DNA from: Gammaproteobacteria bacterium
Lineage (GTDB): Bacteria > Pseudomonadota > Gammaproteobacteria > Ga0077536
Length of the DNA: 64,000 nucleotides
Assembly: GCA_963662545.2 (NCBI GenBank)
Contig: CAXXLL010000003.1
Span: 1,984,001 to 2,048,000 of the forward strand
Direction of reading: 5' to 3'
The notes beneath the pieces are model-generated. The model saw only the letters and a list, made by a program, of their open reading frames with translations, had not been told where the DNA came from and did not search any database. The position numbers and the translations under genes were made by a program. Shown piece by piece: positions 3,164 to 64,000 of the stretch; positions within the stretch are counted from its first letter, which is position 1; every line of letters starts with the position of its first letter.

Positions 3164-3565
3164 ATGCGCCGTTGGAATACGTCGATTCCGACGATTTTAC
3201 TCGTAGTTTTGACCGGCTGTGCGACGGTTCAGGATCTGCAGACCGAGCGGTTCGGCATCGTATCGAACGTATACCAGCAGACTGCGCCTGGTCTGTTCAT
3301 AGAGCACCAGTTCGTTGATCGGCCTGAATCGGTTTCTACGTGGGTACGCGTGGACCTGGTAGCATCCGCGACCGATGGCCGGACGGTGGCGACGGCCCTT
3401 GTCGTAATCGGTGAATCCGTCCAGCGGGGCGACGCAGTTCGGGTCCACCTAGCTTCTCGTAGCGCCCAGCCGAGCAGCGAGATTGTTTCGCCGAGAAATC
3501 GGGTCGTCGAAATTATTAACGAAGATTCCCCGGCTATTGCCGGAATCGGCATGCAGCTGTTCTAA
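3164..3565 (+). CDS. Hypothetical lipoprotein
   Basis: 133-aa ORF with a hydrophobic N-terminus and lipobox (VLTG/C). Confidence 0.6.
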   Translation: MRRWNTSIPTILLVVLTGCATVQDLQTERFGIVSNVYQQTAPGLFIEHQFVDRPESVSTWVRVDLVASATDGRTVATALVVIGESVQRGDAVRVHLASRSAQPSSEIVSPRNRVVEIINEDSPAIAGIGMQLF

Positions 3566-5690: not shown

Positions 5691-7247
5691 ATGACGGAGA
5701 CTCGGGAAGGGCGTGCGAGTGTTTGCGTGATCGGCGCCGGCATAGCTGGGCTGGTGACCGCCAAGGTCTTCGGTGAAGATGGTTTCGACGTTACCGTATT
5801 CGAGAAAGAATCGGCCCTCGGGGGGACATGGGCCGCTGCACGTAGTTACCCGGGTCTGCGCACTAACAACTGCAAATACACCTACGCGTTTTCCGATTTT
5901 CCATATCCGGAGTCCGTCGATGTATACCCGCAAGCCGATCAGGTGCGTAGATACCTCGAATCCTACGCCGATCATTTCGGTATCCGCTCGCGAATAAACT
6001 TCGACCGACACGTAAGCCGTATCGCGCGATCGAGCGCAGGCGGCGATCGATATGAAATAGTCCTACAACCGACCGGCGGCGGTGCGGAACAAAGCGCCGA
6101 ATTCGATTTCGTCGTCGTGTGTAACGGGGTATTCCATCTCCCCCACATGCCGACGATCGAGGGCATGTCCGACTTCGCCGGGCGGATCGTGGCCTCCTGC
6201 GACGTAACCGATGCTATCTACGAGCAAAGCAAGCACCCGATCGTCGTTGGTGGCGGCAAATCTGCGCTCGACTCCGCGACAGGCGCCGCGAAGCGCGGCC
6301 TGTCGCCCACTCTCGTGTTTCGGCATCCGCACTGGATCGCACCGCGTTTTCTTCCAGGCGGGATTCCCGGCGATTTCGTCATTTTGTTGCGGTTGACGGC
6401 ATCGACCTTGCGTTATCACGAACTACACGGCATCGATCGGTTTCTGCAGACGGTCGGGAAACCGCTGTCGGATTTGTGGTGGACGTTCGTTTCCTTCATT
6501 TTCCCTAAGATTTTAGGGATGCCACGGGAACTCACACCCGATCCGCTGCCGCATGATCTGGAAAGATTCGGGGTGGGCGGGGAATTTTTCGATGAATTCA
6601 ACGCCGGCCGCGCGAAGGCCGTCGCCGGTGAGATCAAGCGATTCAAGCAAAACAGCGTCGAATTGACGAACGGAAAAGAAATCCCGGCGGATCTCGTTAT
6701 CTTTGCAACGGGCTGGGAACAAGACATGTCGTTTCTGGCCGATGATCTCCGCGAAGAAATCGTGCACCAGGGCCGCTTTCGCCTCTACCGGCATCTGCTG
6801 CCGCCAACGGCACAGCGGATTGGATTTGTCGGCTATGCGTCCTCCGTGGCGGCGCAGCTCACCGCTGAGATAGGCGCGCATTGGCTTTCGCAGTGTTTCC
6901 TCGGTGCCTTGTCATTGCCTTCGGTCGAAGACATGGAACAAGAAATTGACCGCGTCCATGCCTGGGCAGCAGAAACCATGCCGAGCCGCCGCGCCGGTTA
7001 CTTCGTCGGCGCTTTTGTCCCGCAGTACGTCGATGACCTGGTGAGGGACATGGGACTTCCCACCAAACGCACCGGCAACTTCATCAAGGAATACCTGACA
7101 CCCTTTTTCGCATCACGCTTTTCGAACCTGGGTGAAGAGCGGCGCAGGAGCCGTGAAGGGCTGGCCGCATTGCCGCGCGGATTCTATTTCAGCGGCGTGC
7201 ATGCCGGTATCGCCGCCCTTGTGATCGTTCTCGTGCTGTGGTGGTAG
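5691..7247 (+). CDS. Flavin-containing monooxygenase (FMO-like)
   Basis: GAGIAG FAD motif, GGTW..YPGL, GGGKSA NADPH motif, FATG and a C-terminal TM helix. Confidence 0.9.
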   Translation: MTETREGRASVCVIGAGIAGLVTAKVFGEDGFDVTVFEKESALGGTWAAARSYPGLRTNNCKYTYAFSDFPYPESVDVYPQADQVRRYLESYADHFGIRSRINFDRHVSRIARSSAGGDRYEIVLQPTGGGAEQSAEFDFVVVCNGVFHLPHMPTIEGMSDFAGRIVASCDVTDAIYEQSKHPIVVGGGKSALDSATGAAKRGLSPTLVFRHPHWIAPRFLPGGIPGDFVILLRLTASTLRYHELHGIDRFLQTVGKPLSDLWWTFVSFIFPKILGMPRELTPDPLPHDLERFGVGGEFFDEFNAGRAKAVAGEIKRFKQNSVELTNGKEIPADLVIFATGWEQDMSFLADDLREEIVHQGRFRLYRHLLPPTAQRIGFVGYASSVAAQLTAEIGAHWLSQCFLGALSLPSVEDMEQEIDRVHAWAAETMPSRRAGYFVGAFVPQYVDDLVRDMGLPTKRTGNFIKEYLTPFFASRFSNLGEERRRSREGLAALPRGFYFSGVHAGIAALVIVLVLWW

Positions 7248-43157: not shown

Positions 43158-44070
43158 TTAGCAGTCTTCCCAATACGGGCACCCACTCCATAGTTCAGCC
43201 AGGAAATCGATGAATGCCCGAATTCGCCGCGGTAAATTACGCGTGTTCGGGTAGATTGCGTAGACCGACAGATCGATCCACTTGTAACGAGTCAGCACCG
43301 GTTCCAGCAGACCTGCCTTTACCGCCTCGTAGCAGATGAACTTTGGCTGGAGGATCACCCCGCGGCCCGCTATTGCTGCATCGCGCAGAAAATCGCCGTT
43401 GTTTGCCTGCAGGATCGCCGGCACGCGGACGCTGCCGGAGCGGCCGTTCGCGGTGTGATAGCGCCAGGTGGTCGATGTGCGATTGGAATAGTGCATGCCG
43501 TGATGCGCGGCAAGGTCGTCGGGCGTCTTCGGTTTCCCGTGGCTCTTCCAGTAGTCAGGGCTCGCCGAGACCAGGCCCGTAATGGGCGCCAGGCGCCGGG
43601 CGCCGGGCAATCATGCGCGAGTCACTGAGCGTTGCAATGCGGACCGCGAGGTCGATGCCTTCTTCGATGATGTCGATCTGTCGGTCGTTGAATTCGATGT
43701 CGAATTGAATATCGGGGTGATTCTCGAGGAACGCATTGATGGCCGGACCTAAGTGCTGGGTGCCGAATACCGTCGGCGCGGCCAGGCGGATCCGGCCCGT
43801 CAGCGCGGCTTCGGCTGACGCTACGTTCGCCTCCACCTCGTTCAACTCCGCCAGCAGGCGGGTGCATTCGCCGTAAAAGCGCTGCCCCGCATCGGTCAGC
43901 GTCATGCGTCGCGTGGTGCGGTTGATGAGCTGGACACCGAGGCGAACTTCGAGGTCTGACAAGCGCCGGCTGACGGCCGACTTCGCGACGTGGCTTTGAT
44001 CGGCCGCGCGGGTGATGCTGCCCGCATCGATGACGCGCACGAAATTCCGCATTTCTTCGAATCGGTCCAT
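43158..44070 (-). pseudogene. LysR family regulator frameshifted by a 7-bp tandem duplication
   Basis: HTH (GSITRAA...KSAVSRRLSDLE.RLGVQLINRTTR). GCCGGGC is duplicated at 43595-43608; removing one copy gives MIARRLAPI in frame. Confidence 0.9.
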
Positions 44071-44308: not shown

Positions 44309-44469
44309 CAGGTTGTTGAAAAACGATGTCCCTATCGTTTTTCAACTCGCAAGACGAAAACGCGGTTTCCGTCTTGCTCCATCAATCAAGCACATAGCGT
44401 GCTCGATTGATGCCGGCACATCCCTGTGCCGGGCACAGGCTGTCGAAAAACGAGTTTTTCAACAGCCTG
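44309..44469. mobile_element. MITE (~161 bp)
   Basis: CAGGTTGTTGAAAAAC ... GTTTTTCAACAGCCTG terminal inverted repeats with (C)TAA flanks and an internal GGCACATCCCTGTGCC hairpin. Confidence 0.75.
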
Positions 44470-45049
44470 CTAAAGGACTGACCCCGTGAGAATGAGGTCA
44501 GTCCTTTCAACGATACTCCGAGCAGTCCGTCCTCGACCCTAAATCACTGCCCCGCCACGATGGGGTCGAGTCTTTCATTGATATAGCGTTAATGATCCGT
44601 ATCAATTTTTGACTCCTTACCTTTTCGCGTCCATCGCGATCGGGTGCTATGTTCGACTCCGGCATCTATTCTTTCAGCGTCGGGCCTGAAATATGCGGCC
44701 CGGTAAATACCGTCGGTCGTACATGCAGCTAGCCCGCCTACCAGCGAATACTACGACCTCACTACCCACAAAGCCGTTTCGTCTTCCCGTATCGCCAAAC
44801 ACCGCGCTATTTGCTCCTGTCCGTCACGTTGTTTCTAAACAACGCGCGGCGTTTACAATACAGTCTGTGAATCATACGAATTTGCTAATACTGCGTAACA
44901 AATCATATAGTTTTTTGAAAAACTCGTGGCTGATATCGTCAGATCTAAATCTGTCGATAAGATGACACGGCCACCACGCCGATAGTATCGATGGACAGGT
45001 AAGCCATCGCTTAGACTAAACACCCGATGATTATTGAAACGGGAGCTTC

Positions 45050-46510
45050 ATGCTAAACAATCCCATCACACTTCCGATGTGGCAAATCACAATACCGGTG
45101 ATTCTGTCGGTATTTTTCATGTTGGAAAAGCTCCTCATTCCCAGTGTGCGATGGATGATCCGGCGCAAGGTGAATCGCGTGCTCACCGAGATCAGCGAGC
45201 ATCTCCAAATCGAGATAAGACCTTTCCAATTGACAAAACGCAAAGTTCTAATCGACCGCCTGATATTTGACTCGAAGGTCATCGAAGGAATGGAGGCGCA
45301 TGTAAAGCTGAACAAGATGCCACGCGAAGTCGCCCAGCAGGAGGTCCTTCAATATGCACGTGAAATCGTCCCGGCCTTTAACGCCTATGTCTATTATCGT
45401 TGGATCTATCGAATGTGTCGGTACGCGTGCCGTCAGCTGTACCGTATCCGTGTCGGGGTTGCCGATGAAAATGAAATTCGATCGATCGATCGAAACGCGA
45501 CAGTTGTATTTGTAATTAACCATCGCAGCAATATCGACTACATGTTGGTCGCGTATCTCGCATCCAAGCAGACAACGCTGTCTTATGCCGCCGGTGAATG
45601 GGCTAAGGTATTTCTACTGCAGTCATTGATACGAGCAATGGGTGCTTTCTTCGTACGGCGCGACTCGCGAAATCCCCTCTATCGGCGCGTTCTTGAGAGA
45701 TACGTTCATATGGCTACGAGAGAAGGCGTCTGCCAAGCGGTGTTTCCAGAAGGCGGTCTTACGAAGACGGGTGCGCTCGCACCACCCAAACTTGGATTTA
45801 TCGATTACATGCTGCGTGGATTTGACGTTGAGAAGGATCGCGACATCGTTTTCGTGCCGGTTGGTATTAACTACGATAAGGTGCTTGAAGATAATATCCA
45901 GATTAACGCTGCGAAAGGTATTCCAATAAGTCGCTCACTTTGGAAATGGGGGAAGGTCATCTTTCGATTTGTCGTGGCGAATTTTTCTATTCCCCAAGCT
46001 CAACGACACGATTTATTCGGCTACGCAAGTGTAAATTTCGGCCGCGTCATTTCGGTGAAAATGTTCGCGCAGGAGCAAGGGATCAACTTCATAAGCTTGG
46101 ACAAGGACACGAGGTTTAGATATACCGCGATCCTAGGTGAAAAGTTGATGAATGGTATCGGCTACGTCACTCCAATTTTGCCGGTGCCGCTTATCGCGCA
46201 AGCGTTCAAGAAAACCGCAGAAAACTCGCTGTCTGAATTGGAAGTCATTTCAAAAGTCCATGATCTAATAGATGCATTGATCAGCTACGGCGCACCGATA
46301 AACAATGCCGAGAAGCCAGCGAAAAAGACCCTCCAAAAGGCGCTCGCTTTAATGACTCACTATTCAATGCTTGAACTCAGAGATGATCGCTACCATGCGG
46401 TTGATACTTCATCGGAACTACTCTCTTACTATGCGAACTCAATCGCTCATTGGTTTGAACAAATCGAGCATATAGATCCGAGACCGCAAAGTATCGGAGA
46501 AGCAGCGTAA
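45050..46510 (+). CDS. Glycerol-3-phosphate acyltransferase-like protein (PlsB/PlsC domain)
   Basis: NHRSNID, GAFFVRR, FPEG and VPVGINYD motifs; lower GC than neighbours. Confidence 0.88.
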   Translation: MLNNPITLPMWQITIPVILSVFFMLEKLLIPSVRWMIRRKVNRVLTEISEHLQIEIRPFQLTKRKVLIDRLIFDSKVIEGMEAHVKLNKMPREVAQQEVLQYAREIVPAFNAYVYYRWIYRMCRYACRQLYRIRVGVADENEIRSIDRNATVVFVINHRSNIDYMLVAYLASKQTTLSYAAGEWAKVFLLQSLIRAMGAFFVRRDSRNPLYRRVLERYVHMATREGVCQAVFPEGGLTKTGALAPPKLGFIDYMLRGFDVEKDRDIVFVPVGINYDKVLEDNIQINAAKGIPISRSLWKWGKVIFRFVVANFSIPQAQRHDLFGYASVNFGRVISVKMFAQEQGINFISLDKDTRFRYTAILGEKLMNGIGYVTPILPVPLIAQAFKKTAENSLSELEVISKVHDLIDALISYGAPINNAEKPAKKTLQKALALMTHYSMLELRDDRYHAVDTSSELLSYYANSIAHWFEQIEHIDPRPQSIGEAA

Positions 46511-56343: not shown

Positions 56344-58032
56344 ATGGCAACCGTCGATGGCGGCGTTTTGATAGGCCGGATTCTAAAAGAGCAAAACATC
56401 AAGTACCTGTTTTCCGTGAATGGAGGACACATCTTTCCGATCCTCGCGAATATCCGCGAGAACGACGTGAAGCTCATCCACATGCGCCACGAGCAGTCGA
56501 CGGCCTATGCCGCGGATGCGTATGCGCGCGTAACGGGAACGCCCGGCGTGTGTGCGGTCACCGCGGGCTGCGGACTCACCAATGCCGTCACGGGCCTGTG
56601 TTGTGCGGGCTTGACGAACAGCTCGGTGGTCTGTCTTTCCGGCCAGCATCCAACCACCGAGGACTTAATCGGTTCATTTCAGGAGGCCTATGGATCCGAG
56701 GTCTTGGGATCGTTCGCGAAATTCACGAAGCGGGTGCTCGACTGGTCGACCATCGAGGTCGATCTACGCCAGGCTTTCCGTGAAGCGAAAAATCCTCCGC
56801 AGGGGGTCTCGCTGCTCGAGATCCCGACCAACATTCTTTATCAGTCCGGGGAAGAGGAAAAACAGCGGCCGGGGGCGAAGATTTACGAGCCGGACGCACT
56901 GCGTTCACAGGGTGATCCGCGCAGCATCGAGCGGGCTGTCGAGCTCTTGTTCAAGGCAGAGCGTCCGCTGATCGCGGGCGGCGACGGCATCTTCTGGTCT
57001 GACGCGGCGGCCGAACTCAAGGAACTCGCGGAACTCACCCACACCCCGGTCTATTGCCGGCGCGCAGGGCAGGGCGCCTTGGATGAAGCGCATGCGCTCG
57101 CCGTCCGAGGTGCTTGGAAGAAGCCCTTTACGGGACAGGCCGACCTCGTGCTCGCCATTGGTTTCCGCTTCTGGAGCGGCGAGAAATTCGGGCAGCCGCC
57201 CACCTGGACAGACAAGGCGACTTACATCCAGGTTGACACCGATCCGCATCGGGTCGGCTGGCATGTTCCGGCTGAGATCGGCATCGTCGGCGATCCCAAA
57301 CTCGTGCTGCGCCAGTTCATCGACAAGATCAAGGAGATGAAGCTCGACTTTGATTCGAAGGGCGAGAGCCCGTGGATGAAGCAGATGGCGGAAGTGCGCC
57401 AGAATTACGAAAAGATGATCGCCGAGCGAGCACAGAAAACCCACGACGAAGTTCCCATCCATCCGGATCGGCTGACCAAGGATCTCATTTCGGTGATCGA
57501 CGACGACGCCACCCTGGTCGTCGACAGCTTTACCTTGAGCGGTTACACCAGCCAGTGGTTCACCGCCCACCGCATGGGTCAGATCGTCGACGCCGGGCCG
57601 CTCGCACCCGTCGGGCATGGTGTCGGCATGGGCATCGGCGTGCAGTTGGCGCGCCCGGGCAAGCAGGTCGTGGTGGTTTCGGGTGACGGCGGCCTCGGCA
57701 TCGGGGGCATGGATCTCGAGACCGCGGCCAAGTATGAGCTGCCGATGGTGACGCTGTTGTGGAACAACAGCTCCTGGGGCCCGGGTTTCGAAGCCATGCC
57801 GCTCTTAAAAGGGCGCACGGATCCTTTCGATATGATTTCCGACATTCGCTACGACAAGGTGTTCGAGCCCATGGGTCTATATACGGAACACGTGGAGACG
57901 CCGGATCAGATCATACCCGCGCTGGAGCGGGCGTTTGCGTCAGGCAAAACCTCACTGATCAACGTCGTCGGCGACAAGCGCTACGGTCATCCGTCGCTCG
58001 GCGGCAACCTGCTGGGCTCGACGCAGTTGTAA
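56344..58032 (+). CDS. Thiamine diphosphate-dependent enzyme (acetolactate synthase / 2-hydroxyacyl-CoA lyase-like)
   Basis: GGHI, RHEQ and GDGG...NN motifs. Confidence 0.92.
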   Translation: MATVDGGVLIGRILKEQNIKYLFSVNGGHIFPILANIRENDVKLIHMRHEQSTAYAADAYARVTGTPGVCAVTAGCGLTNAVTGLCCAGLTNSSVVCLSGQHPTTEDLIGSFQEAYGSEVLGSFAKFTKRVLDWSTIEVDLRQAFREAKNPPQGVSLLEIPTNILYQSGEEEKQRPGAKIYEPDALRSQGDPRSIERAVELLFKAERPLIAGGDGIFWSDAAAELKELAELTHTPVYCRRAGQGALDEAHALAVRGAWKKPFTGQADLVLAIGFRFWSGEKFGQPPTWTDKATYIQVDTDPHRVGWHVPAEIGIVGDPKLVLRQFIDKIKEMKLDFDSKGESPWMKQMAEVRQNYEKMIAERAQKTHDEVPIHPDRLTKDLISVIDDDATLVVDSFTLSGYTSQWFTAHRMGQIVDAGPLAPVGHGVGMGIGVQLARPGKQVVVVSGDGGLGIGGMDLETAAKYELPMVTLLWNNSSWGPGFEAMPLLKGRTDPFDMISDIRYDKVFEPMGLYTEHVETPDQIIPALERAFASGKTSLINVVGDKRYGHPSLGGNLLGSTQL

Positions 58033-58061
58033 GCGTCAGCGGCGCAGAAGGAACGCGATAA

Positions 58062-58440
58062 TCAGAAAGTGATCTGAATCTCGCCGCGCACGGCGAAAGG
58101 CGCCCCCGGTGTCAAGCGCAGCGCGTCCGATTGGCTGCCCTGGATGAAGGATTCGTCGGTGAGATTCTCGAACCGCATCTGAAATTCGAGATGCCGAGAG
58201 TACTCCCATTGGACGAAGGCATCGGCGCGCACGTAGTCGTCGAGGCGGAGGGCGAGTTCGTCGGGGTTGAGACTCGCCTGCCGTCCGCCAACATAGTTGA
58301 CCGCCAGGCCAAGCTTGAGGTCTTGTGGACGCCGCAACGATGCAGTGTACGTCGTCAGCAGGCCGCCTTGATGACGCGGGGCATTCAGCGCGCGCGTGCC
58401 ATCCGGGATGAAGGGGTCGTTAGTGATCTCGGTGTCGTTT
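58062..58440 (-). pseudogene. C-terminal fragment of a TonB-dependent receptor
   Basis: N.PRH...LGLAVNYVG.R...Y...D...ENLTD...PGAP....I..F with a terminal Phe; no N-terminus. Confidence 0.75.
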
Positions 58441-60344: not shown

Positions 60345-60501
60345 AGGTATAAGCCGAATAAACGCCCTTTTCCGCAAATCCGTCGAGTACCGCCAGGTCA
60401 TCCAACAGTCGTCAACCTGCGCTTCGAGGCGGTGTTGGCCGGAATTGCGCCTCGGAGTCAGCAGGAATCCCGCATTTCAGGGCGATTTTCGAGGTGTTCC
60501 G
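60345..60501 (-). mobile_element. Second copy of the IS91/ISCR oriIS end
   Basis: 157 bp with 5 mismatches to 62274-62430; ends GGGCGTTTATTCGGCTTATAC on the - strand. Confidence 0.85.
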
Positions 60502-60616: not shown

Positions 60617-61681
60617 TTAATTGGTTAATGGTTGAGAATTGTCTTTCTGAACAACTCCCACCTCTCCTCTCCAGCCACTTGTTCTTAGCCATGTTTCAAA
60701 CGTGCTGAGATCTGGATGGAGGTCGCGCAGCATGTTTATATCGCGAGAAAGACCAAAACGTTCAATGAAACTGAACATATTCGATAGCGCCGGGGTCTCA
60801 GGTTGATTTATCGCTTTGTATTCTGACAGTGTGTAGGGCTCAAATACCGCGTCTATGCCGGTTACACTTTGGAAGATCTTGCCAATCTCTTGAATGGGTA
60901 GAGAATCTGAAATAATCCGCAATGTCCGCCCTCTCCACTGCTGTTCGTGGTTGAGAATTTGTGCTGCAAACCACCCAATATCGTTGAGGGTCACCATCGG
61001 CCATAGAGCCGAGCCGATAGGTACCCTAAGTAATAGGCGTGGCTTATCTCGTACGACTTCAAGGCGAACCGCTGCTCTATCCCCGCCACCTCGAAACATT
61101 CGGCCAGCTTTAAAATTTTCCATATAAGGCGCCGTCACAAATATCGTTACATGCTCGGCATACCATCTAACCGACTGCCTCTGCTCATTTATAAATTGCT
61201 CTACGCGCGCTTTAGCGTCGAAGTGAGGAGCCGGGAATAATCCACCGGAAGGGCTATCCGTAGCATCCAGTGAGCTGAAGACGAAATGTTCAACACCTTC
61301 TTGACGCGCGAGTTCCAATATCAGCTTTCCCTGTTGTACGTCGGTGTCCTCAGCCATTCGATAAAGCGGCCAAGGATCCGTGCCCAGCTTGCCGTGATGT
61401 GCCCAAACATCTTGAAGGCATGACCAAAAGTTTGTATTGCAAAAGATCGAATGCGCACCACCAATAGCAGCTCTGAGGCTTGCTTCGTTGTCAACATTGC
61501 CCTTTTCGAGCTTCACCTTGCCGCGCCCCAACTTTTGCAATTTGCGACACTCGCTACCTGATGGGTTGCGCGTAAAAATACGTATTTGCTTAAACGTATT
61601 TTTTGATTTCAGCAGGTTCTTGATTACGTGCTGGCCCATTGCTCCCGAGCCGCCGATAACAAGCAGTGTTCGCTCAATCAA
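60617..61681 (-). CDS. NmrA/HSCARG family NAD(P)-binding protein
   Basis: GGSGAMG, QGK, HFVFSS, HFDAK, YMENF and DIG motifs; low GC. Confidence 0.88.
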   Translation of the reverse strand: MIERTLLVIGGSGAMGQHVIKNLLKSKNTFKQIRIFTRNPSGSECRKLQKLGRGKVKLEKGNVDNEASLRAAIGGAHSIFCNTNFWSCLQDVWAHHGKLGTDPWPLYRMAEDTDVQQGKLILELARQEGVEHFVFSSLDATDSPSGGLFPAPHFDAKARVEQFINEQRQSVRWYAEHVTIFVTAPYMENFKAGRMFRGGGDRAAVRLEVVRDKPRLLLRVPIGSALWPMVTLNDIGWFAAQILNHEQQWRGRTLRIISDSLPIQEIGKIFQSVTGIDAVFEPYTLSEYKAINQPETPALSNMFSFIERFGLSRDINMLRDLHPDLSTFETWLRTSGWRGEVGVVQKDNSQPLTN

Positions 61682-61759
61682 GAATTGCTTCCTTTGTGAA
61701 TTCCAACAGTTGCGATTGGGTTTATTGCCAAGATAGCGGTGAACGATCGCTATCTCTCA

Positions 61760-62140
61760 CTACCTATCCGTCACAATCTTACGATATGTGCGTTTCGACA
61801 CAATTTCATTCGTGTCATTGAACGTAAAAATGTCGATTGCATGCACATCGAGTTTCTTGGCGGCGCATTGAACGTGAATTTCGTGGATGATGCTGTCATC
61901 GCACGAATACGCTCGGATCGTTTTGTATGAAATGCCTGGATTGGATCGGAAGGTATCGTTTATCGCATTGCGTACTGCGACAATACCTTCATATTTAGCT
62001 CCGGCCGGAGCGGGACCAACGGCGAATTCCCATATTGGGTGTTTCGCCATCAGAGCAAGCGCAGCCTCTGTGTCGTTATCGTCGAATGCCTGCACGAATT
62101 TCGAAGCCAGCATTTCCCTTCTAGCTTTTTTGGATTTCAT
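61760..62140 (-). CDS. SnoaL-like / NTF2 family protein
   Basis: FVQAFD..D, G..AVR and DIFTF...IVSK.TY pattern; low GC. Confidence 0.75.
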   Translation of the reverse strand: MKSKKARREMLASKFVQAFDDNDTEAALALMAKHPIWEFAVGPAPAGAKYEGIVAVRNAINDTFRSNPGISYKTIRAYSCDDSIIHEIHVQCAAKKLDVHAIDIFTFNDTNEIVSKRTYRKIVTDR

Positions 62141-62682
62141 ATATCTCGCTCTCCACCCTCGCTCTCCACTCGAAACCGAAACTAATTCTCAGACTTGCAC
62201 GCTCCGGATTTAATTTTCAAGCTCGGACAATAATCCCAGTTGCCGGAGTTGACTGGCTGAAATGAACCTCGCTAGGTATAAGCCGAATAAACGCCCTTTT
62301 CTGCAAATCCGTCGAGTATCGCCAGGTCATCCAACAATCGTCAACCTGCGCTGCGAGGCGGTGTTGGCCGGAATTGCGCCTCGGAGTCAGCAGGAATCCC
62401 GCATTTCAGGGCGATTTTCGAGATGTTCCGACCGTTGGCACGATAGCGACCGTGCCGCGTCGCTGGGTATCGCAGCCTCGGAGTAGCATGTGGGGATGCC
62501 CGTGTATCAGGCGAACAAGCTGGCCTGGGGCGGCGCCCGACACGGGGGAAAATGCCGGGCGGCGCCGGCAGCGTCTTTACGGTCGAGGTGGGTGAGGATC
62601 TTCTCGATGACCACCGGATCCTCGATGCAGGCGATGATCTTGACGCGGCCGCCGCAAGTCCTACAGGTCTCGATGTCGATGT

Positions 62683-62729
62683 GGCCTACAGGGATGTAGG
62701 TCAGGGGCGTGAGCAGGACGCGGAAGCTT
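62683..62729 (+). repeat. 47-nt GGA-hairpin insertion (family C)
   Basis: CCTACAGGGATGTAGG hairpin plus CAGGACG and CGGAAG. Removal restores RVFNIDI. Confidence 0.8.
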
Positions 62730-62761
62730 TGAATACCCGCTTCAAGCGCTGCGCCCAGGTC

Positions 62762-62812
62762 GCCGCTCTTGCGCATCCCTGCGCCCGCGGCATTAGTGCA
62801 TCCCTGCACGTC
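62762..62812 (-). repeat. 51-nt twin GGA-hairpin insertion (family A)
   Basis: GTGCAGGGATGCAC and GCGCAGGGATGCGC hairpins. Removal restores AMTWAQ. Confidence 0.88.
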
Positions 62813-62941
62813 ATGGCTGCCCGGCGTTCGGCGGGCGTTGTGTCTTCAGGCACATCCGACGCGCCGGCCTTGCTGCCCTTGCCGCGCTTGGCCGGCGTCA
62901 CCTGCGCACGATGCGCGCTGTTGGGGGCGAACACGCCGTGA

Positions 62942-63013
62942 CAAATTTATCTGGAATAAATTTGGACAACCGAAGGTTGCCCGAAGGGTGAGGAACAGGG
63001 ATGTTCCTCATCC
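62942..63013 (+). repeat. 72-nt four-hairpin insertion (family B)
   Basis: Removal restores TRFHGV. It carries the in-frame TAA that ends ORF 62947..63990. Confidence 0.88.
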
Positions 63014-63369
63014 AATCGCGTCAGGTTGACCCTGGGCTTGGGCACCAGGGCGACCAGGCGGGCGATAAAATCCAACGGCTCGAAGATGACGTGCGTGGTG
63101 CCATCTCGGTACGGCGTCTTGAGTTGGTAACGCACGTTGCCGTTGGTCGTGAGCGACAGCCGCTTTTCCGACACCGCCGGCCTTGCAATATAGCGGCACA
63201 AACGTTCCAGCTTCTTGCGTTCATCGGCCCTGGCCGCGACCCCCGCATGCAGCGAGAAGCCAGCCACCGTGCCCACCGAGTTAGCGAACGGCTCATTGCA
63301 ACTCGGCAGGGTCTGCAGCGTGAACACCTTGCGCCCTTGGCTAGCGGCCCCACCGCGATGCGGTACGTG

Positions 63370-63421
63370 GCCGCTCCAGCGCATCCCTGCGCTCCGCGGC
63401 ATTCGTGCTTCCCTGCACATC
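63370..63421 (-). repeat. 52-nt twin GGA-hairpin insertion (family A)
   Basis: GTGCAGGGAAGCAC and GCGCAGGGATGCGC hairpins. Removal restores HSITYRIAVG. Confidence 0.85.
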
Positions 63422-63523
63422 ATCGAGTGGCCAAAGAGCTCATCCAGCGGCCCCGCTTCCCTGGCCTCCCCGGACAGATAGCGGTTCTCGGTATCACGTT
63501 CCAGCAGCCCTTGACGCTCCAGA

Positions 63524-63595
63524 CAAATTCGCCAGGAGCGAATTTGGACGCACGCCGTGCGCCCGCAGGGGGCGCGCCAAGGATGGCGCGCATCC
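63524..63595 (+). repeat. 72-nt four-hairpin insertion (family B)
   Basis: Removal restores GRFLERQG. Same architecture as 62942-63013 with different stem sequences. Confidence 0.88.
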
Positions 63596-63730
63596 AAACG
63601 CCCGACGCGGTGCGCGATGGTGTGCGTCAATTGGGTGAGTTCGGTACTCGTCGGCGCCTTCAACCAGCGAAACCGCGTGCTCGATCCATTGGCGGCATCG
63701 ACATAGACACCATCCAAAAAAATCATGTGG

Positions 63731-63781
63731 GCCGCTGCTGCGCATCCCTGCGCCCGCGGCATTAGTGCATCCATGCACGTC
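63731..63781 (-). repeat. 51-nt twin GGA-hairpin insertion (family A)
   Basis: Near-identical to 62762-62812. Removal restores the HUH motif H-F-H. Confidence 0.88.
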
Positions 63782-64000
63782 AAGTGAAGATTTAGATTGA
63801 GCGCACTCCCAAATCGTTGGATCAGCGTGACCGCGCCAGTGCGAGCCGCGGTGCAGGAAAAGCCCGCCTTTTTGATCAAGTGCGTGGCAATGCAGCGGTA
63901 AACGATGCCGAGCACCTGGCCCATGATCGCCGGACGGCTGGCAAACAAAAAACGTAATGGATACGGAAAACTCAATACCCATTGGCGCACCGGCTGCGCG

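Follow-up and report, generated by a model that had tools for sequence, protein, structure and literature searches.

The window studied here is a stretch of 64,000 nt from a gammaproteobacterial genome (G000:C3:1984001-2048000, where G000 denotes the genome; positions without a prefix are those of the window). Close to its end, on the minus strand, lies the relic of a transposase gene of the ISCR type (insertion sequence common region), a subgroup of the IS91 family of insertion sequences (IS), and this gene is interrupted by short inserts that carry hairpins. A reading of the sequence alone (the sequence-only reading in what follows) had described six of them. That number holds for the window; the gene itself runs past the window end and contains eight.

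The open reading frame (ORF) in the window matches the Pfam domain Y2_Tnp (PF04986, E 4.5e-25), and the relic can be aligned to amino acids (aa) 1-496 of a 500-aa paralogue in the same genome (G000:C3:2499002-2500501). The paralogue is intact and has both the N-terminal IS91 zinc-binding domain (Zn_Tnp_IS91, PF14319, E 4.2e-19) and the catalytic domain (Y2_Tnp, PF04986, E 9.2e-37). Its HUH motif reads H-F-H; in the window copy, the motif is parted by an insert. The nearest plasmid relatives of the window gene, with 75-77% nt identity, are annotated as 'IS91-like element ISVsa3 family transposase', and we take the ISVsa3 type to be the ISCR2 type. These plasmid genes match just the stretches between the inserts, in 4 segments that account for 53-55% of the query, and the four-piece matching suggests that the plasmid copies lack the inserts. 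Downstream of the gene, the motif ...TTTAT(T/G)CTNCCTATAC closes the homology ~205-240 nt 3' of the stop codon in intact copies of G000, G004, G023 and G058. The motif ...TTTATKCTNCCTATAC, which marks the homology end in four genomes, is also found in the window at 62276-62296; following the ISCR literature, we presume that it corresponds to the oriIS. With both domains, the HUH motif and an oriIS-like 3' end, the host gene is an ISCR-type (ISVsa3/ISCR2-like) IS91-family transposase. There are 38 loci related to it in the genome, one of which is intact.

Table 1. The interrupted transposase gene, its inserts and its 3' end. Sites are nt positions in the coding sequence of the intact paralogue; a slash marks a junction.
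Feature	Position	Strand	Description
ISCR-type IS91-family transposase relic	62507..64000	-	~450 nt more beyond the window end, to G000:C3:2048452
insert I1, 47 nt	62683..62729	-	site 1318, RVF/N/IDI; absent from the intact paralogue
insert A, 51 nt, two tandem hairpin units	62762..62812	-	site 1284, A-M/TW; model R2, 82.4 bits
insert B, 72 nt, three hairpins	62942..63013	-	site 1157, TR-F/HG; in-frame TAA; model R1, 92.7 bits
copy-specific 2-nt insertion	63336..63345	-	frame restored 27 nt downstream of the 52-nt insert; alignment with four paralogues
insert A, 52-nt variant	63370..63421	-	site 803, HS-I/TY; model R2, 74.7 bits
insert B, 72 nt, other subtype	63524..63595	-	site 698, GR-F/LER; model R1, 88.4 bits
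insert A, 51 nt	63731..63781	-	site 569, H-F/H, HUH motif split; model R2, 79.8 bits
two further inserts of the same gene past the window end	C3:2048129-2048180 (52 nt), C3:2048039-2048085 (47 nt)		alignment gaps
oriIS-like 3' end of the relic	62276..62296	-	minus strand reads ...TTTATTCGGCTTATAC

The inserts were placed by nucleotide alignment of the window copy with the intact paralogue. We see eight clean gaps in the paralogue, six inside the window and two beyond its end, and the matches of the covariance models give the same ends for the A and B inserts. The sequence-only reading had located the six inserts (gaps of 47, 51, 72, 52, 72 and 51 nt) exactly where the alignment puts them, with the same junction residues (RVF-N-IDI, A-M-TW, TR-F-HG, HS-I-TY, GR-F-LER and H-F-H), the last of which splits the HUH motif. 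It had also proposed an alignment with an intact transposase, which the 500-aa paralogue, free of all the inserts, made possible. The five inserts of 51-72 nt all lie in phase 2 after TT or AT, again as described; phases 0 and 1 are seen in other copies, so phase 2 is not general. Finally, a full-sensitivity scan of the 64 kb finds A and B only in this gene; the sequence-only reading had noticed no such inserts in the ordinary genes of the window.

Once the eight inserts are conceptually removed, a single lesion is left in the 496 codons of the window copy, the insertion of 2 nt. In this copy the lengths pair up in ways that keep the frame: the two N-terminal inserts add up to 99 nt (52 + 47), and at site 803 the 52-nt insert and the 2-nt insertion come to 54 nt. 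A 73-nt insert in G011 is likewise followed by a return to the frame. There are too few such cases to tell this bookkeeping from chance. Contigs of four public sequencing runs span the inserts with 0 differences, where the best run may be the genome's own assembly sample. Some contig joints pass over 47 nt, from 62681 to 62729, or over 76-79 nt, from 62940 to 63017/63020; we rejected them as evidence of excision, because their shorter side measures only 23-33 nt and paralogues with empty sites could yield them.

All insert families carry a hairpin with the loop CAGGGATG or its complement. Read on the coding strand, A elements (51-52 nt) are made of two tandem units, each with a 5-bp stem and the loop GGGA followed by a GCSGC tail, and their second hairpin is nested within a GCCGC/GCGGC stem. 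The B type (72-76 nt) has three hairpins. I1 (47 nt) has a hairpin at its end, and a further type that lies beyond the window, N2 (47-48 nt), has one at its start. The copy of I1 in the window ends in the hairpin CCTA-CATCCCTG-TAGG, brings an in-frame TGA and shifts the frame, while the B insert at 63524-63595 keeps the frame, has no stop and differs from the other B insert of the window in all three stems by compensatory changes. An unpaired tag, GATG or GACG, stands 5' of the stem, and the ends of A and B are not mutual inverted repeats. The earlier proposal of structured families is borne out, though not their number: instead of three we count at least four or five, which share the hairpin with the loop CAGGGATG/CATCCCTG.

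The structures are conserved. We tested B on 16 distinct copies, drawn from this genome and four others. Of 400 cells, 97.5% are paired, and in 13 of the 25 pairs both partners vary; the observed covariation was not reached in any of 500 shuffles, and it is lost when the partners are shifted. The A family has a compensatory pair as well (GTGCA/TGCAC versus GTGAA/TTCAC). Hairpins with the common loop and a stem of at least 3 bp occur 69 times genome-wide, as compared with ~2-3 in each of six shuffled-loop controls. The best Rfam match in an E-value search of 61500-64000 was ncS037, with 24.9 bits against a gathering score of 112 (E 0.24).

The same loop motif is also seen in intergenic DNA. At 44312-44470 of the window, between the ORFs ending at 44070 and starting at 45050, there is a multi-hairpin repeat that contains the hairpin CCGGCA-CATCCCTG-TGCCGG and has ~10 similar copies in the genome. 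Two hairpins of the form CGC-CAGGGATG-GCG lie just upstream of apparent tRNA genes (agctcagttgg motif) at G000:C2:471938 and 472133.

Next, we turn to the sites of insertion. Among the 38 ISCR-like loci there are 40 inserts of at least 40 nt at ~13 sites, to which a pattern and the model later added another B copy. The empty paralogue sites read ttca/acatcg (1318), tcgat/cacgta (803) and gccat/gacctgg (1284), and those of B read CTT/TC(A). A comparison of filled and empty paralogue sites revealed neither target duplications nor terminal inverted repeats; the insertions are clean, and the sequence-only reading was right that a target duplication is not obligatory. The junction of A is T/C in 43 of 73 copies from many taxa, and that of B is TT/TCA, GT/TCA or AT/TCA in 33 of 62 metagenome copies; on the opposite strand, a B insertion at TT/TCA lies 3' of TGA. 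Since TTCA occurs ~46,500 times in the genome, the motif alone cannot account for the preference for ISCR genes. One site can be shared by different families: A alternates with B at 569, with N2 at 803/805 and with a type of 39-49 nt at 1284-1292. The insertions are precise, without duplication, and site- and strand-preferring, and B always has one orientation relative to the gene.

Insertion into the loops of pre-existing hairpins is weakly suggested (21 of 73 junctions versus 16.2 +/- 2.7 in controls; P = 0.005 for the folding energy of the restored site). Two other ideas about target choice were rejected. Base-pairing of the variable stems with the target flanks was seen by eye in two matches of 5-6 nt (CAACC, GCGCAC) and showed no covariation in other copies, and a common recombination core TTTG at both junctions conflicts with the junctions that we observe.

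The elements are concentrated in ISCR-like genes. Within this genome, 22 of the 30 B matches (model R1, E < 1e-5) and 11 of the 12 A matches (model R2) lie inside the 38 ISCR-like loci, and the twelfth A match retains the flank of ISCR site 1284. The 38 loci together make up 20.5 kb, or 0.37% of the genome; compared with a generous model of neutral space, the enrichment has P ~1e-22 for B and ~1e-13 for A. All 7 copies of I1 are at site 1318 of ISCR-like loci. On the other hand, 8 copies of N2 and several divergent B-like copies are apparently intergenic. The genome has a second group of IS91 genes (406-aa copies), and their frames are open and free of stops. The preference is confined to the ISCR subgroup of IS91 genes.

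The paralogues in the genome have a synonymous divergence (dS) of 0.75-2.2 and a ratio of nonsynonymous to synonymous divergence (dN/dS) of ~0.15-0.25, and therefore they diverged as functional genes. At dS 1.34, the window copy and C3:2758962 nevertheless hold the same inserts at the same three sites, namely B (69 of 71 positions identical), A (51/51) and I1 (46/47). Paralogues at dS > 0.7 have 51-mers identical to the insert at 62762-62812, and in the same place. In metagenomes, B copies at one site are 89-97% identical, while the third codon positions of their flanks are 27-81% identical and at most 0.67 in all except 4 of 45 pairs. Structural constraint cannot by itself hold 72 nt nearly invariant, because the family tolerates complete stem replacement. 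Near-identical inserts amid saturated synonymous divergence therefore indicate that insertion was repeated and site-preferring. At site 803, moreover, where the window copy is filled, its close paralogue C3:2491859 is empty with near-identical flanks and C3:1468181 is filled, and at site 569 the junctions are shifted by 1 nt between genomes. The rate of insertion appears to be high, to go by the 35 micro-inserts versus 10 frame changes and 2 stops that we count in 11 insert-bearing loci. Taken together, the alignments show that the elements entered diverged ISCR-type genes repeatedly and independently, at a few hot spots that code for conserved motifs.

Outside this genome, we analysed a family sample of 81 genomes from 18 genera; a search at the level of the order gave the same 81 genomes and extra loci only. 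With a cut-off of E <= 1e-6, B is present in 31 of these genomes, which represent 11 genera. By tblastn, 20 of the 26 examined B matches (E <= 1e-9) were in or against ISCR-like coding sequence, and 21 if L084 is added by eye; this count excludes our own genome, and four further matches were left out. Of 25 examined A matches, tblastn placed 16 inside ISCR-like genes, and inspection by eye another 4. The same sites recur: 1157 is occupied in at least nine paralogues and also in other genera, and 569, in the HUH motif, holds A or B in other paralogues, other genera and metagenome contigs. One genome, G058, has a full-length ISCR gene whose identity to the intact paralogue is 81% and which is undamaged apart from one B insert bringing a stop; an oriIS-like end is present too. 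To judge from this gene, live ISCR copies are hit too.

Two broad samples were seeded on the elements and not on the transposase, and the element patterns favour canonical subtypes; calls of the context by tblastn overlook short flanks. A degenerate 24-nt core of A occurs in at least 118 stretches of species-representative genomes from many gammaproteobacterial orders, including Acidiferrobacterales, Thiohalomonas, Steroidobacter, Erwinia and Serratia. The B pattern found 62 complete elements on metagenome contigs. Of these, 33 are in ISCR-like genes, all 33 in the same orientation, with hot spots at ~aa 369-377, 381-387 and 190 (the HUH site) and fewer copies at ~aa 73, 88 and 167-177. The remaining copies lie between genes; one example is upstream of an AbiEi/AbiEii pair, another near rpsI. 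In summary, the superfamily is a general gammaproteobacterial repeat family, of which the B subfamilies, as well as A and I1 in this bacterial family, go mainly to ISCR genes.

Some single cases from these samples deserve mention. On the metagenome contig L324, two B copies (3191-3262 and 6217-6288) lie ~3 kb apart with identical flanks; the one that was checked is upstream of an AbiEi/AbiEii toxin-antitoxin pair, and the same flank is present in at least 7 other contigs. In G090, there are 43 copies of an A-like module within a ~130-nt intergenic repeat on many contigs (e.g. L143, L147), one of which adjoins the start of a MutL-like gene; this looks like the burst of a composite derivative in one genome. 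In L207, a metagenome-assembled genome (MAG) of Acidiferrobacteraceae, an A element at ~3445-3495 sits in a pseudogene similar to RAYT (REP-associated tyrosine transposase, a Y1 enzyme), after the R-Y codon pair that precedes an NP-R-A motif. The RAYT-like ORF is below Pfam significance, and this case gives the sole hint that the range of HUH targets may be wider. An IS200-like Y1 ORF in our genome (L267, G000:C2:1461900-1462900, ~580-530 on the minus strand) loses its likeness right after MPDH, in its own HUH motif. A perfect hairpin with a 15-bp stem (CAAATCAGGTACCGCC...) starts at this break and is reminiscent of the terminal hairpin of B; only one boundary is defined.

We propose that the inserts are non-autonomous hairpin elements of 47-76 nt, similar to repetitive extragenic palindromes (REP) and palindrome-associated transposable elements (PATE), which move as single-stranded DNA (ssDNA), prefer ISCR genes and inactivate them, and we assign this reading a probability of about 0.55. 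Each insertion disrupts the transposase, be it through a stop, through a shift of the frame or by splitting the HUH motif. The elements would move as ssDNA via an HUH-type enzyme supplied in trans, as is thought for IS200/IS605 derivatives and REPs. We infer this because there are no inverted repeats or duplications, hairpins are present at both ends, target words are very short and the orientation is uniform. The target word 5' of one end (TGA, on the bottom strand of B) resembles the other end of the element, ...CATCA or CATGA. As to the preference, it might exist because ISCR exposes one strand as ssDNA in rolling-circle transposition, and the elements probably hit that intermediate. Relative to the transposase gene, the strand with TGA 5' of B is the antisense one. 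If ISCR replication runs from the oriIS, downstream of the gene, toward the terIS, this TGA-bearing strand would be the displaced one. Alternatively, the preference may come from an ISCR transposase acting in cis near its own gene.

Several observations weigh against this reading. By tblastn, no more than 8 of the 81 A occurrences in the broad sample fall inside ISCR-like genes, and three added by eye make 11. Within ISCR genes, either orientation is found for A and N2, and sites 1099 and 1328 hold divergent B-like copies that point the other way; a pure one-strand model does not cover all copies. The copies are not independent, as there are segmental duplicates in the genome and some metagenome contigs have identical flanks and maybe come from the same organism. 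The hairpins abut the junctions, unlike the end geometry of the IS608 type. Then there is the enzyme. The genome has 7 matches to Y1_Tnp/RAYT-like proteins, none of them flanked by loop-motif hairpins within 1.5 kb; one loop motif is at C2:805545, by the matched Y1_Tnp stretch. Around 81 A copies there was no recurrent protein family except ISCR (IS91 zinc-binding domain, 5 loci), the rest being housekeeping genes. The search for a co-occurring mobilising enzyme that the sequence-only reading had suggested thus returned none near Y1 genes or these 81 A copies. The upstream and oriIS-side sequences of intact ISCR copies are unlike the elements, and the ends of ISCR were rejected as their source, as the intact copies show no resemblance. 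Finally, the earlier notion of a dedicated class that targets rolling-circle elements stands in one half. The strong recurrent preference for an HUH transposase is there, including a hot spot in the HUH motif; the class is not dedicated, given that A relatives are mostly outside ISCR-like genes across Gammaproteobacteria and related families are intergenic in this genome.

How else could the pattern have arisen? One insertion per site might be ancient and have been inherited with the ISCR lineage, spreading by trans transposition, horizontal transfer or gene conversion, while structural constraint kept the elements similar. The same subtype does occur at the same site across genera, e.g. the GTGAA/TTCAC subtype of A at aa 89-91 in many taxa, flanks are identical in several metagenome contigs, and the structural constraint is real; some cross-taxon cases, such as this subtype, may indeed be co-inherited. 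As the general explanation we regard it as improbable, for the inserts are 96-100% identical where the flanking synonymous sites are saturated, even though the family allows complete stem replacement. It is also at odds with the presence and absence at site 803 in close paralogues, with different families at one site, with the 1-nt shift at site 569 and with flanks beside the inserts that have not been homogenised. A different possibility is that the inserts are removed or tolerated, by precise single-strand excision, RNA processing or ribosomal bypass, and that the interrupted ISCR genes are functional or regulated. The exact boundaries, the frame that excision restores, the often lesion-free flanking coding sequence (L320 aa 173-497, L307, L334, G058), the recurrence of insert-bearing variants with the same flanks in several metagenome contigs and some frame bookkeeping in the window copy all fit with this. 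We nonetheless consider it unlikely: lengths of 47, 52, 73, 75 and 76 nt are not multiples of three, in-frame stops are many, most insert-bearing loci are truncated fragments, and owing to the +2 indel a precise excision of all inserts leaves the window copy frameshifted. The low dN/dS between copies is accounted for by divergence before insertion, and we know of no such machinery for removing inserts in bacteria.

Two explanations remain. A host or a competitor might have a dedicated mechanism that disables ISCR by means of hairpin cassettes, which would defend it against a transposon that captures genes. Inactivation is the net result, with 1 of 38 ISCR-like loci intact, the hot spots are in catalytic or conserved motifs including HUH, and the orientation is specific; no associated gene was found near the elements, however, related elements are ordinary intergenic repeats in many genomes, and selfish spread explains the same facts, which leaves a defence with little to recommend it. 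Least of all do we believe in passive accumulation, where generic REP-like repeats insert anywhere and survive in dead, neutral IS copies. It is true that most carriers are relics and that relatives of the elements are intergenic, but 22 of 30 and 11 of 12 copies would not be expected in 0.37% of a genome that has far more intergenic DNA than this. Diverged copies are filled at exactly the same sites, the otherwise intact gene of G058 was hit, all 33 metagenome B copies in ISCR-like genes have one orientation, and A and B are found nowhere else in the 64-kb window.

A more specific version can be considered. The micro-elements could be specialised hyperparasites of ISCR or a recruited defence against it, inserted strand-specifically into the single-stranded intermediate, at the hot spots in conserved motifs, by an HUH enzyme, possibly the ISCR transposase in cis, and either killing ISCR or switching it off reversibly. 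We offer this tentatively and think it doubtful on the present data. To our knowledge, the rolling-circle mechanism of ISCR has never been directly shown; if the version is true, the orientation pattern would be the first natural footprint of the single-strand intermediate. ISCR elements are held responsible for the capture and movement of many antibiotic-resistance genes, and elements that repeatedly and strand-specifically break ISCR genes would be a natural inactivator. The orientation pattern could also reveal which strand of ISCR becomes single-stranded. More generally, the elements are an example of a very short structured DNA that finds a specific gene family with almost no information in the target sequence. 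They form a widespread, uncatalogued gammaproteobacterial repeat family, which confuses gene calling and splits transposase genes into several ORFs.

A few observations concern the surroundings of the relics. The flanks of the window relic, 427 nt just beyond the window end and 131 nt at 62300-62430, are each ~96% identical to stretches a few kb away in the window, 58011-58437 and 60371-60501, which suggests a local duplication around the relic. ISCR-like relics cluster at G000:C3:2.69-2.77 Mb, C3:2.47-2.50 Mb and C2:0.66-0.74 Mb. One cluster contains a threefold repeat spaced ~7.5 kb apart (C3:2694276, 2701945, 2709704), and the intact ISCR copy lies inside a cluster and adjoins a DDE transposase of the IS240 type.

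No earlier description of the elements was found in Rfam or in the literature searched, including with four 14-nt element words, where supplements and subscription journals were outside the scope; the ISCR/IS91 literature likewise yielded no report of such inserts. Two well-known kinds of element were rejected. The inserts are not classical MITEs (miniature transposable elements with inverted repeats), as their ends are not inverted repeats and there is no target-site duplication. An integron attC site is one long imperfect palindrome with pairing ends and the consensus RYYYAAC ... GTTRRRY; the ends of our elements do not pair and neither core motif was found.

With REPs, the related BIMEs (bacterial interspersed mosaic elements) and the REPIN-RAYT system, the elements share that they are short non-autonomous hairpin repeats with an unpaired tag 5' of the stem and no target duplication. 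Related families here are intergenic as well, and single-strand HUH chemistry is presumed for both. They differ in the tag, which is GATG or GACG and not GTAG, in having 2-3 hairpins over 47-76 nt in place of single palindromes or inverted dimers, in their low copy number (12-30 per family), and in preferring one gene family and lying inside coding sequence. An identity with REP/REPIN-RAYT was rejected, given that we see neither the GTAG-tagged single extragenic palindrome of 20-40 nt in high copy nor a RAYT gene with its cognate repeats on its flanks.

Similar to the CGTC-tagged repeats and to RPE (Rickettsia palindromic elements), our elements are small palindromic repeats in coding genes with no dedicated transposase, and the tag GACG of the A type is the complement of CGTC. 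The described CGTC families have 8-9-bp stems that start with AT pairs, a loop of 4-5 nt and CCA tails, and they occur, translated, in many unrelated genes (Di Nocera et al. 2013, PMC3733652). The A type has GC-rich stems of 5 bp, no CCA tail, frequent stops and ISCR targets, and we rejected an identity with CGTC-tagged REP or RPE.

A further comparison is with IS200/IS605 elements and their hairpin-only derivatives, the PATEs. IS608 and PATEs have neither terminal inverted repeats nor target-site duplications, carry hairpins at their ends and insert strand-specifically 3' of a fixed word. Our elements agree in part: they lack repeats and duplications, have hairpins at both ends and, in the case of B, show a target word of 3-4 nt (TGA for the bottom strand) and a strand-specific orientation within ISCR. 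In contrast, they measure only 47-76 nt, their hairpins abut the ends and are not subterminal, and A is found in both orientations. A cognate Y1 transposase with matching ends was found neither near Y1 genes nor in the ORFs beside the 81 A copies, where the sole Y1 exception is the RAYT-like pseudogene, which is itself interrupted.

Inserts within coding sequence that ribosomes bypass are known from gene 60 of phage T4 and from the 'byps' of yeast mitochondria. Those are, like ours, hairpin inserts of ~50 nt in ORFs, but here we see no matching take-off and landing codons and no sign of bypass. A specific pairing of an IS with a small palindrome also has a counterpart: Tobes and Pareja reportedly described, in 2006, IS elements that target REPs (IS1397, ISPpu9 and others). 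The roles are reversed, for there the IS lands in the repeat and here the repeat lands in the gene of the IS. Among all these systems, the elements described here are thus small hairpin repeats of a known kind, in a family that is apparently undescribed and has an unusual, conserved specificity for ISCR genes.

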